A stretch of 5,820 nt of DNA. Origin: Promethearchaeota archaeon (GTDB lineage: Archaea; Asgardarchaeota; Thorarchaeia; Thorarchaeales; Thorarchaeaceae). The stretch is from positions 6,810-12,629 of the forward strand of contig JALVPN010000124.1 of NCBI GenBank assembly GCA_027031765.1, given 5' to 3'. Every line of letters starts with the position of its first letter. Position 1 is the first letter of the stretch. The notes below the pieces were generated by a model. It saw nothing but the letters and a program-made list of their open reading frames with translations. It was not told where the DNA came from and did no database searches. A program made the position numbers and the translations under genes. This document shows, one piece after another, positions 1 to 5,581 of this stretch.

Positions 1-275
1 CGGAACAACTTGAACGCGTTCACACCATACCTGTGGCTCGTGTCGCTGTCGAGCTCCTCTGGCAGGTTGACTATCCTTATGACCCCGTAGGGACACTTCT
101 TCACGCAGATCCCCTCTCCTGAGCACAGTGCCTCCACTATGACCGGGGGCTTTGTCGGCCCCTCTGGGAAGACTACGGTCTCATCGCCGGTCCTCACCCT
201 TGGACAGAACCTCTGACACTCGTGGGCACAGTCCTTTGGTCGGCACCTGTCACGGTCAACAATGGCAATCCGCAT
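1..275 (-). CDS. ABCE1: Ribosome recycling/biogenesis ATPase ABCE1 (RNase L inhibitor homolog), N-terminal Fe-S domain; runs off the left edge
   Basis: Manual minus-strand translation from ATG at 275: MRIAIVDRDRCRPKDCAHECQRFCPRVRTGDETVVFPEGPTKPPVIVEALCSGEGICVKKCPYGVIRIVNLPEELDSDTSHRYGVNAFKLF. It has the ABCE1 signatures RIAIV..D.C.P..C...C..FCP, ICVKKCP, I.IVNLP..L and HRYG.N.FKL, plus an upstream SD motif. Confidence 0.97.
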   Translation of the reverse strand, partial: MRIAIVDRDRCRPKDCAHECQRFCPRVRTGDETVVFPEGPTKPPVIVEALCSGEGICVKKCPYGVIRIVNLPEELDSDTSHRYGVNAFKLF

Positions 276-3135: not shown

Positions 3136-3822
<687 letters not shown>

Positions 3823-3861: not shown

Positions 3862-4764
3862 ATGAAGGTCTCCCTTGAGTGCGCCCACTGTCTGCTAGCG
3901 CGTGCTGTGAACCAGATACGTCTTGCAACTGATGACCCTGACCTCCAGATGCGCGTGGTCACAGCAATGCTGCAGTTCCTCGCAGACAACTTCAGTCCGG
4001 GAGCTGTCCCCAGTCACATCGGCACTGGCAGGGATTTGCTGGTGCAGGAGATGACGGGTAAGGACCCGTATGCGGAGCTGAAGAGGGAGTCAAATGCCAT
4101 GGCGCTGGAAATCCTACCAGAACTCATGGCACTGGTCGCAGATGCTGATGACGAGCGCATGAGGTTCAGGCGTGCAGCCCTCACTGCAGCAGCGGCCAAT
4201 GCAATCGAGTTTGATGTGTCCGGCCGGCACTTCAGCCTGGACGAACTCAGGCACATCCTTGACAATGTTGAACATGACCTCGCAGTCGACCAGGTGGACG
4301 AGCTGATGGCCCTATGTCGTGATGTCCCCAGTGTCCTGTACCTGCTGGACAACGCCGGGGAGATTGTCCTCGACATAGTGCTGATCTCTGAGATAAGACG
4401 CCTCGGTCCTCGTGTGACTGCGGTGGTCAAGGGTGGCCCCGTGCTCAATGATGCGACCATGGAAGATGCCCGTGAGGTCGGCCTCCACGACTATGTGGAC
4501 GAGGTCATAGACACTGGTGCCCAGTCCATTGGTGTGGACCTTGGACGCTCCTCCGAGGCCTTCAGGAGGCGTCTGGCCTCGGCCCCGCTTGTTGTGGCGA
4601 AGGGAATGGGCAACTACGAGTCTCTCACAGAGGTCGAGCTGGGCTGCCCGGTCGTCCACATCCTGCGTACCAAGTGCATCCCGGTCGCAGAACACATTGG
4701 TGTCCCACGTAACTGCAATGTGATACTGGTGCGGTACCCGGCAAGAAATCCTAGCCCGGACTGA
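3862..4764 (+). CDS. DUF89/ARMT1-like damage-control metal-dependent phosphatase (PH1575-like subfamily)
   Basis: N-terminal CAHC, DPY..LK..SN, LYLLDNAGEIVLD, VKGGPVLNDAT..DA, AKGMGNYESL and TKC. SD GAGGTG at 3848-3853. Confidence 0.94.
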   Translation: MKVSLECAHCLLARAVNQIRLATDDPDLQMRVVTAMLQFLADNFSPGAVPSHIGTGRDLLVQEMTGKDPYAELKRESNAMALEILPELMALVADADDERMRFRRAALTAAAANAIEFDVSGRHFSLDELRHILDNVEHDLAVDQVDELMALCRDVPSVLYLLDNAGEIVLDIVLISEIRRLGPRVTAVVKGGPVLNDATMEDAREVGLHDYVDEVIDTGAQSIGVDLGRSSEAFRRRLASAPLVVAKGMGNYESLTEVELGCPVVHILRTKCIPVAEHIGVPRNCNVILVRYPARNPSPD

Positions 4765-5581
4765 GGGCCCGCGTTGGGGGCCTCGACTCGGCGAACTCCA
4801 CGGCCAGCTCTGGGAACTCAAGTCCCATTCTCAGCTCCAGCCGCTTCATCCCGGGCTCTTCAGTCACAAAACGGCCGAGTTCAAGGGTGTTCACTTTCAG
4901 TTCGTGAGCTGCCAGTCGGGCCGTGGGTGTCAGTTCACCCGTGATGAGGGCCCTGATATCATCGGAATGCATCCTGACAATGTCGTCCTGTGTCAGGTGG
5001 CTGCCTGGCAGGACAAGCACCTGCTCGACCTGCTCGTCAAGCGTCCCTGTGAACTGTACCGATTCAAGGCCGAGGCCTCTCATTGTCCTGTCTGCAAGCA
5101 TTGCATGGCTGACTGGGCGCGCCAGGTCACAGAGCCGCCCTGCGGGCACTGGGCCCTGTGACCCCCCATGCGTAAAGTAGTCCTTATGGTGTCGCACATC
5201 TATGCCGATGGCCTTGACAAGTGCATCTGCAATACCATCGCGGGCACCAATGTATGCAGTCCCGATGACATACACTGTGATGTAGTTCTTTACGAGGAGC
5301 CTGGTCCTGATTAGGCTGCTGCCACCAAGGCGGGCACCACCCACCCCAAGTACAGGCCAGTGTGTGACGATGAGGTTGCTGTGCTTCTGTGTCGCCTGCG
5401 TGATTGCACGCCCGGACGGATATGTGACGACCAGGACACGGTTGACCCGGGTCTTGTGCTGCTCGAGCTCGCTCTGAGGTCCTATCTCAACGTAGCTGTC
5501 GCGGCCATGGACTGTCAGTTCCGGCGGGGCAACTGTTTCAAGGAACTTGACTATCTCTCTCAGGGTCGTCACAAGTGTCAC
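4751..5581 (-). CDS. NIF3/YbgI-family (GTP cyclohydrolase I type 2 homolog) protein with a degenerate metal site
   Basis: NIF3 layout: L.EIV..LE..AP, V.RVLV, NLIVTHWP, I.VY....G..DAL, GR...L, V.QV.V.PGS, LITGE and LG...TEEPG. GTG start with GGAG upstream. The 3' end overlaps the DUF89 3' end by 14 nt (4751-4764). Confidence 0.88.
   Translation of the reverse strand: MTLVTTLREIVKFLETVAPPELTVHGRDSYVEIGPQSELEQHKTRVNRVLVVTYPSGRAITQATQKHSNLIVTHWPVLGVGGARLGGSSLIRTRLLVKNYITVYVIGTAYIGARDGIADALVKAIGIDVRHHKDYFTHGGSQGPVPAGRLCDLARPVSHAMLADRTMRGLGLESVQFTGTLDEQVEQVLVLPGSHLTQDDIVRMHSDDIRALITGELTPTARLAAHELKVNTLELGRFVTEEPGMKRLELRMGLEFPELAVEFAESRPPTRALSPG

Follow-up and report, generated by a model that had tools for sequence, protein, structure and literature searches.

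Glutamate at the sixth cluster-cysteine position of a thorarchaeal ABCE1, and recurrent replacement of the same cysteine among Asgard archaea

In this work, we describe the 5′ part of an ABCE1/Rli1 gene and its surroundings in a window (the whole stretch of DNA analysed) of 5,820 nucleotides from a member of the Asgard phylum, whose genome assembly is MAG-like (2.95 Mb in 229 contigs, 59% GC, 95% complete). The features of the window are listed in Table 1. The ATG of ABCE1 lies at window positions 275-273 on the minus strand and the gene continues past the left window edge; on the contig, C124, the full open reading frame (5267-7084; 605 aa) is intact, with three masked codons just beyond the edge of the window. 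The neighbours are ordinary housekeeping genes, and we saw no link in the window between them and the ABCE1 variant described below.

Table 1. Features of the window, with positions counted from its first nucleotide
Feature	Position	Strand	Basis
ABCE1/Rli1, 5′ part (residues 1-91 of 605)	1..275	minus	open reading frame and translation
Second Fe-S motif, C51-S-G-E54-G-I-C57-V-K-K-C61-P62	90..125	minus	translation and gap-free alignment to ABCE1 structures
Codon GAG of Glu54, at the yeast/human C58 position (sixth cluster cysteine, a cluster II ligand)	114..116	minus	translation, alignment
First Fe-S motif, CX4CX3CX3CP (C11, C16, C20, C24, P25), complete	201..245	minus	translation
107-aa open reading frame without a match in Pfam, on the strand of ABCE1 and immediately upstream of it	276-599	minus	
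Parvulin-type PPIase	1405-1707	minus	
Triosephosphate isomerase	3136-3822	plus	
ARMT1-like damage-control phosphatase	3862-4764	plus	
NIF3 homologue	4751-5581	minus	

Several lines of comparison identify the protein as ABCE1. The Pfam family Fer4_RLI (PF04068) matches residues 1-32 (E = 8.9e-12, scoring 45 bits where 23 is the cutoff) and is followed, within a single 605-aa chain that has no membrane domain, by two ABC_tran domains (E = 2e-42). When residues 1-91 were compared with PDB chains by phmmer, matches were obtained to 3bk7_A and 3j15_B (E about 3e-27) and to the mammalian and yeast ABCE1 structures (E about 1e-24), and its closest relatives in the database bear the name RLI/ABCE1 and come from Candidatus Thorarchaeota. 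The protein shares its domain order (Fer4_RLI and two ABC nucleotide-binding domains) and length with the canonical forms of ABCE1/Rli1 (P. abyssi 3BK7, S. solfataricus, yeast and human), its Fe-S domain is 53-62% identical to those of archaeal and eukaryotic proteins, and seven of the eight cluster cysteines are in register; the difference lies in the sixth cysteine (C58), which is present in the canonical proteins and is glutamate in the thorarchaeal one. The source genome, at 95% completeness, yielded one ABCE1 match and no canonical paralogue, so the protein with Glu54 must do the job of ribosome recycling. Judged by these matches it is a variant ABCE1 and not a separate family, orthologous to known members except in the eight-cysteine signature.

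Eight conserved cysteines have been described for ABCE1, and in the human protein C16, C21, C25 and C65 form cluster I while C29, C55, C58 and C61 form cluster II (PMC13255074). In the translation of window positions 275..3 (minus strand), we found cysteines at residues 11, 16, 20, 24, 51, 57 and 61 and a second motif that reads LCSGEGICVKKCP, as the first-pass annotation of this DNA had noted. Set against the signature CX4CX3CX3CP ... CX2CX2CX3CP, seven of eight cysteines are present and position six is Glu54; the second motif has the ferredoxin-type form CxxCxxCxxxCP with its second cysteine replaced by Glu54, and C24 is also kept. The stretch containing Glu54 aligns without gaps (phmmer) to CTGCGIC of P. 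abyssi and P. furiosus and to CIGCGIC of mammalian ABCE1, and this gap-free alignment to solved structures places Glu54 at the yeast and human C58 position, an equivalence that the first-pass annotation had proposed for yeast Rli1. In ferredoxin-type wiring, the first three cysteines of one motif and the last cysteine of the other hold one cubane. By the standard wiring of ABCE1, C11, C16, C20 and C61 are assigned to cluster I and C24 to cluster II.

An unexpected residue in a MAG-like assembly of 229 contigs, with three masked codons close by, could reflect an artefact of sequencing or assembly, or a pseudogene. The reading frame of 605 codons is, however, intact, and the codon (GAG, 116-114) differs from TGY in all three bases, which lies beyond a single-base error, as had been argued at the outset. 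Among the 120 homologues closest to it, which stem from independent assemblies of Thorarchaeota, the site is occupied by Glu in 112, by Ala in 6 and by Cys in 2. The 112 occurrences of Glu rule out a sequencing or assembly error and render raw reads unnecessary, and with the same residue in more than 100 independent assemblies the artefact reading is refuted by cross-assembly conservation. At the level of GTDB species representatives, the sixth cysteine (hereafter Cys-6) is absent from 15 of the 16 genera sampled in the family of the source (f1), and the Glu codons of its loci in Thorarchaeia are GAA in 12 cases and GAG in 11. The use of both codons indicates that the amino acid is held while the codon drifts.

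To place the change within Thorarchaeia, we used an IQ-TREE phylogeny from which the motif columns had been removed. In this tree a genus with Cys (g13) is basal and the remainder of f1 is ancestrally Glu, so that Cys changed to Glu once and Glu then changed to Ala three times (in g2, in g4 and in part of g3), four changes in total. Forcing all Glu sequences into one clade cost 61.7 log-likelihood units (AU p = 0.0007). A path from Cys over Ala to Glu had at first been entertained, on the grounds that Ala is a mutational intermediate and that the Ala-types, like the basal Cys-type genus, have Met ahead of Cys-7, and was rejected by the motif-free tree together with the AU test (p = 0.0007).

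Each change from Glu to Ala was accompanied by a change from Ile to Met two residues on (CSGE[GA]IC to CSGA[AG]MC). Met instead of Ile before Cys-7 is found in all Ala-types of Thorarchaeia (L020-L023, L112-L115 and L119-L121), and likewise in an Ala-type Loki genus (L181). The Ala-linked Met may represent packing compensation, the events being too few to test this. At the residue directly after Cys-6, Gly is found in 60 of 61 Cys-type Asgard ABCE1 and Ala in 27 of the 52 without Cys-6; a change from Gly to Ala would fit an altered cluster corner, as a descriptive statement only. Neither the association of Cys-6 loss with Gly-to-Ala at +1 nor that of Ala with Met at +2 was significant, given too few independent contrasts.

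Beyond Thorarchaeia, our Asgard sample comprised about 115 ABCE1 genes from 82 genera and 32 families, to which we added an extra sample of 80 named ABCE1 loci from GTDB genomes. In the alignment, 52 of 113 Asgard orthologues have one of the residues E, A, T, V, I or S in the sixth ligand column. The other seven ligand columns are Cys throughout, with Cys-2 in one small family (f29, genus g81) as the sole exception and the only other variable ligand column. All 52 proteins without Cys-6 have Cys at the three other cluster II ligands and at the four cluster I ligands, and no compensating Cys was found elsewhere in any of them. A phylogeny of 123 sequences requires a minimum of 15 state changes at the sixth column, and loss of Cys-6 amounts to 8 independent contrasts on well-supported branches, or 11 when all branches are counted. 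On this tree, Cys-6 is replaced in at least eight independent Asgard lineages, and Glu is reconstructed to have arisen at least four separate times, in the Thorarchaeia crown, in families f7 and f13 and in genus g24. The first-pass annotation had viewed the substitution as the trait of a lineage; this holds in so far as it is conserved in Thorarchaeia, but it is not the property of one lineage, since E, A, T, V, I or S is found in many.

The replacements differ from family to family. Cys-6 is replaced by Glu in the Thorarchaeia crown (with Ala in three subgroups), in f7, which contains a record named Jordarchaeales, and in f13; by Thr in f21, which matches a Freyarchaeota record, and in f32; and by Ala in f33, a Heimdallarchaeota record. 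Some families are mixed: f5, which includes Heimdallarchaeota AB_125, has Val or Ile in two genera and Cys in two others, f14 has one genus with Ser, f26 has one genus with Ala and another member (L178) that keeps Cys-6, and the large, Loki-like f9 has three genera without Cys-6, carrying Glu, Thr and Thr. In the Loki-like genus g24, Glu is present in 42 of 46 rows, encoded by both GAA and GAG, and Cys in the remaining 4.

Several further variants of the Fe-S domain were seen in the same material. The record JAPDJY010000025.1 (L058), titled 'Thermoproteota archaeon', falls in the Asgard family f7 beside the Jordarchaeales record and shares the motif C-E-G-E-G-I-C; its public name is probably outdated. 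In genus g81 (L197 and L200), the first ~25 residues of ABCE1 lack the second cluster Cys, with C-K-P-E-K-S or C-R-P-D-K-T in place of C-x4-C. The Heimdall-like families f18 (L162, L163) and f20 (L169-L171) have an additional ABCE1-like paralogue, highly divergent and about 590 aa long; these paralogues have all eight Cys and form a long-branched clade of their own in the tree, and in that of f18 the second motif is expanded to C-L-M-A-K-K-G-T-C-G-I-C. Insertions between Cys-5 and Cys-6 that keep the four motif-2 Cys occur in L144 of f4 (C-S-G-E-K-S-C-G-I-C) and in the haloarchaeon-like fragment P0232 (C-L-G-E-T-C-G-I-C), both of which have Glu at +3 after Cys-5, as in the ABCE1 of the window. 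In three genera of f14 (g38, g39 and g41; L154-L156), motif 2 ends in C-N-P-W or C-H-P-W instead of C-P, and the eight Cys are kept.

Outside Asgard archaea, we searched with a DNA pattern for C-x-G-x-x-x-C-x-x-K-C-P-x9-P in which the critical codon is unconstrained and which recovers the Glu forms. Matches were obtained in 93 of 141 Thermoproteota genomes and in 87 of 111 Halobacteriota genomes, and none of the ABCE1-like rows (about 91 and about 88, respectively) had a non-Cys residue at the site, the codon being TGY in all. Likewise, no non-Cys residue was found in 46 named non-Asgard archaeal ABCE1 loci from GTDB genomes, which span Bathyarchaeia, Methanomicrobia, Methanophagales, Archaeoglobus, Hydrothermarchaeales, Micrarchaeota and others. 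Loss of Cys-6 was thus not found in the about 225 non-Asgard archaeal ABCE1 sampled, a sample that is not systematic for Thermoplasmatota, GTDB Methanobacteriota, most DPANN and eukaryotes. Of the 150 best representatives at 50% identity, eukaryote-like ones included, 143 are readable at the site, and 141 of these have Cys, besides one Ser fragment and one His, in a set that is coarse here, ABCE1 being very conserved and Thorarchaeia having no representative of their own. The representative with His at Cys-6 (P0219; C-V-G-H-G-I-C) is a 77-aa fragment with an archaeal-looking ABCE1 N-terminus, and His is another potential non-Cys ligand. The presence of Cys in the non-Asgard samples indicates a strong constraint on the site outside Asgard archaea. 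As to whether CxxExxC is clade-specific, a question raised along with the first observation, the motif is missing from these about 225 other archaeal proteins and, within Asgard archaea, is shared by several lineages.

This distribution can be set beside yeast genetics. In yeast Rli1, the mutant C58A, in which the same ligand is removed, is viable and its protein still works, its cluster is presumed to be [3Fe-4S]+, and the cells show sensitivity towards H2O2 and Cu (Barthelme et al. 2007, cited in PMC3442406); the statement in the first-pass annotation that mutation of this residue is tolerated was therefore sound. C58A is a laboratory Ala mutant, sensitised to H2O2 and Cu, whereas the Asgard change is natural, mostly to Glu, and fixed over many genera. 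The viability of C58A, the six different residues found at the site and the repeated change from Glu to Ala would all be expected if the ligand were dispensable in any ABCE1 and drifted neutrally, the identity of the residue, Glu included, being without function. Under such drift, however, one would not expect Cys in every sampled Thermoproteota and Halobacteriota row, in all 46 named non-Asgard loci and in 141 of 143 readable representatives, nor the persistence of Glu through turnover between GAA and GAG, and we consider this explanation improbable.

With one ligand missing, cluster II might also be gone entirely, the domain being stabilised by other means. Nothing direct speaks for this, and the invariance of C24, C51 and C57 in 52 of 52 sequences without Cys-6 would be unexpected for an empty site; loss of the cluster is very improbable, and even jointly with an artefact it accounts for hardly any of the probability. 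Given that the three other ligands are invariant in all sequences without Cys-6, and that no substitute Cys is found, cluster II appears to be kept.

In ferredoxin-type sites, loss of the second Cys yields either a [3Fe-4S] cluster or a [4Fe-4S] cluster whose fourth ligand is not Cys. The first-pass annotation had proposed a Glu-ligated [4Fe-4S] or a [3Fe-4S] cluster, and either might change how strongly ribosome recycling responds to redox state or oxygen. Our preferred reading, to which we give a rough probability of 0.45 and which is tentative, is that this thorarchaeal ABCE1 has a Glu-ligated, labile [4Fe-4S] cluster II. A single functional ABCE1, the ribosome-splitting twin ATPase, would still bind two cubane clusters in its N-terminal ferredoxin-like domain, with cluster I on four Cys (C11, C16, C20 and C61) and cluster II on three only (C24, C51 and C57), the fourth corner of the latter being occupied, most likely, by a carboxylate oxygen of Glu54 as a ligand. 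From these features we infer the nuclearity, the Glu ligation and the lability of the cluster, which would resemble the CxxDxxC type of P. furiosus ferredoxin with its Asp14, in that the unique Fe would be easily lost and the cluster would interconvert with [3Fe-4S]. The Fe-S domain of ABCE1 has been described as a mechanical wedge in ribosome splitting (PMC13255074), and if it acts in this way and not as a redox centre, a three-Cys cluster would be enough for ribosome recycling.

Counted in favour of Glu ligation are the equivalence of Glu54 to C58, the retention of the other seven ligands, the viability of yeast C58A and precedents for carboxylate ligands. Glu, His, Arg and Thr are among the known Fe-S ligands (PMC8053098), and P. 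furiosus ferredoxin carries Asp14 at the same position of the motif, interconverts between 4Fe and 3Fe forms and becomes all-cysteinyl in the D14C variant (references in PMC11040638). The second Cys is likewise replaced by a carboxylate residue in P. furiosus ferredoxin and in 7Fe ferredoxins, and the former has three Cys and one O ligand (PMC11040638 and PMC8053098). P. furiosus ferredoxin is, in contrast, an electron carrier with Asp, whereas Thorarchaeota ABCE1 has Glu, one methylene longer, in the structural domain of a translation factor, where ligation is putative; where the ferredoxin has Asp as a ligand, the ABCE1 of the window has Glu, and Ala, Val, Ile, Thr or Ser is found in sister lineages. 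Glu lies three mutations from Cys, was reached at least four times and persists in two large clades while its codon changes synonymously, which suggests that it has been selected, and a selected Glu argues most simply for a carboxylate ligand or an electrostatic stand-in. We know of no solved ferredoxin-type site of the form CxxExxC.

What weighs against Glu ligation is the variety of the replacements. Glu has changed to Ala three times in Thorarchaeia, and V, I, T, S and A occur elsewhere in Asgard archaea, most of which are unable to ligate iron; a fourth protein ligand thus seems dispensable, Glu ligation cannot be essential, and Glu54 may simply adjoin a 3Fe cluster. If cluster II were natively [3Fe-4S], in a domain resembling a 7Fe ferredoxin, Glu54 would not bind iron and would instead fill or electrostatically balance the vacant corner, or gate protonation in the manner of Asp15 of Azotobacter ferredoxin I, which reportedly adjoins the 3Fe cluster and has this role. 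That precedent, the loss of the second Cys from CxxCxxCxxxCP as the classical route to 3Fe clusters, the description of yeast C58A as [3Fe-4S]+ cited above, and the non-ligating V, I and A of other Asgard lineages together with the three changes from Glu to Ala, for which no fourth ligand would be needed, are all in keeping with such a cluster. It leaves unexplained, however, why Glu, mutationally the most distant from Cys, was arrived at four times and was then retained through synonymous change in two clades, and we regard a native 3Fe cluster as possible but rather unlikely.

The first-pass annotation had allowed that the substitution might turn out to be already common and characterised. 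Common it is, among Asgard archaea, while no paper characterising it was found. In the literature searched, outside which most subscription journals lie, no paper combined ABCE1, Asgard archaea and iron-sulfur, and among the matches listed for ABCE1 with 3Fe-4S, none dealt with natural variants by title or abstract opening. We found no description of natural Cys-6 loss in Asgard ABCE1, of which there may have been prior notice.

Asgard archaea, taken to be mostly anaerobic, are the closest prokaryotic relatives of eukaryotes, and few proteins of archaea and eukaryotes are as conserved as ABCE1, whose eight cluster cysteines are treated as invariant. Returning to a Glu-ligated cluster II, it is conceivable, though quite doubtful, that in the Glu clades (Thorarchaeia and the Loki-like genus) the carboxylate-ligated cluster serves as a labile 4Fe/3Fe switch that couples ribosome recycling to iron or oxidants. 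If so, global translation would be tied to iron supply or oxidant exposure, in a natural, regulatory version of the accidental effect of C58A in yeast. Natural variants with E, A, T, V, I, S or C at this site offer a way to ask whether the clusters of ABCE1 act purely as a scaffold or sense iron or oxidants. In practice, genuine Asgard ABCE1 would be mis-scored by annotation rules and Fe-S predictors relying on eight Cys. The ligand that is dispensable in yeast genetics is the one replaced in nature, and within our sample almost only in Asgard archaea. This apparent restriction suggests that, on an Asgard-specific background, a ligand conserved elsewhere, including in eukaryotes, has been freed from constraint or put to new use.
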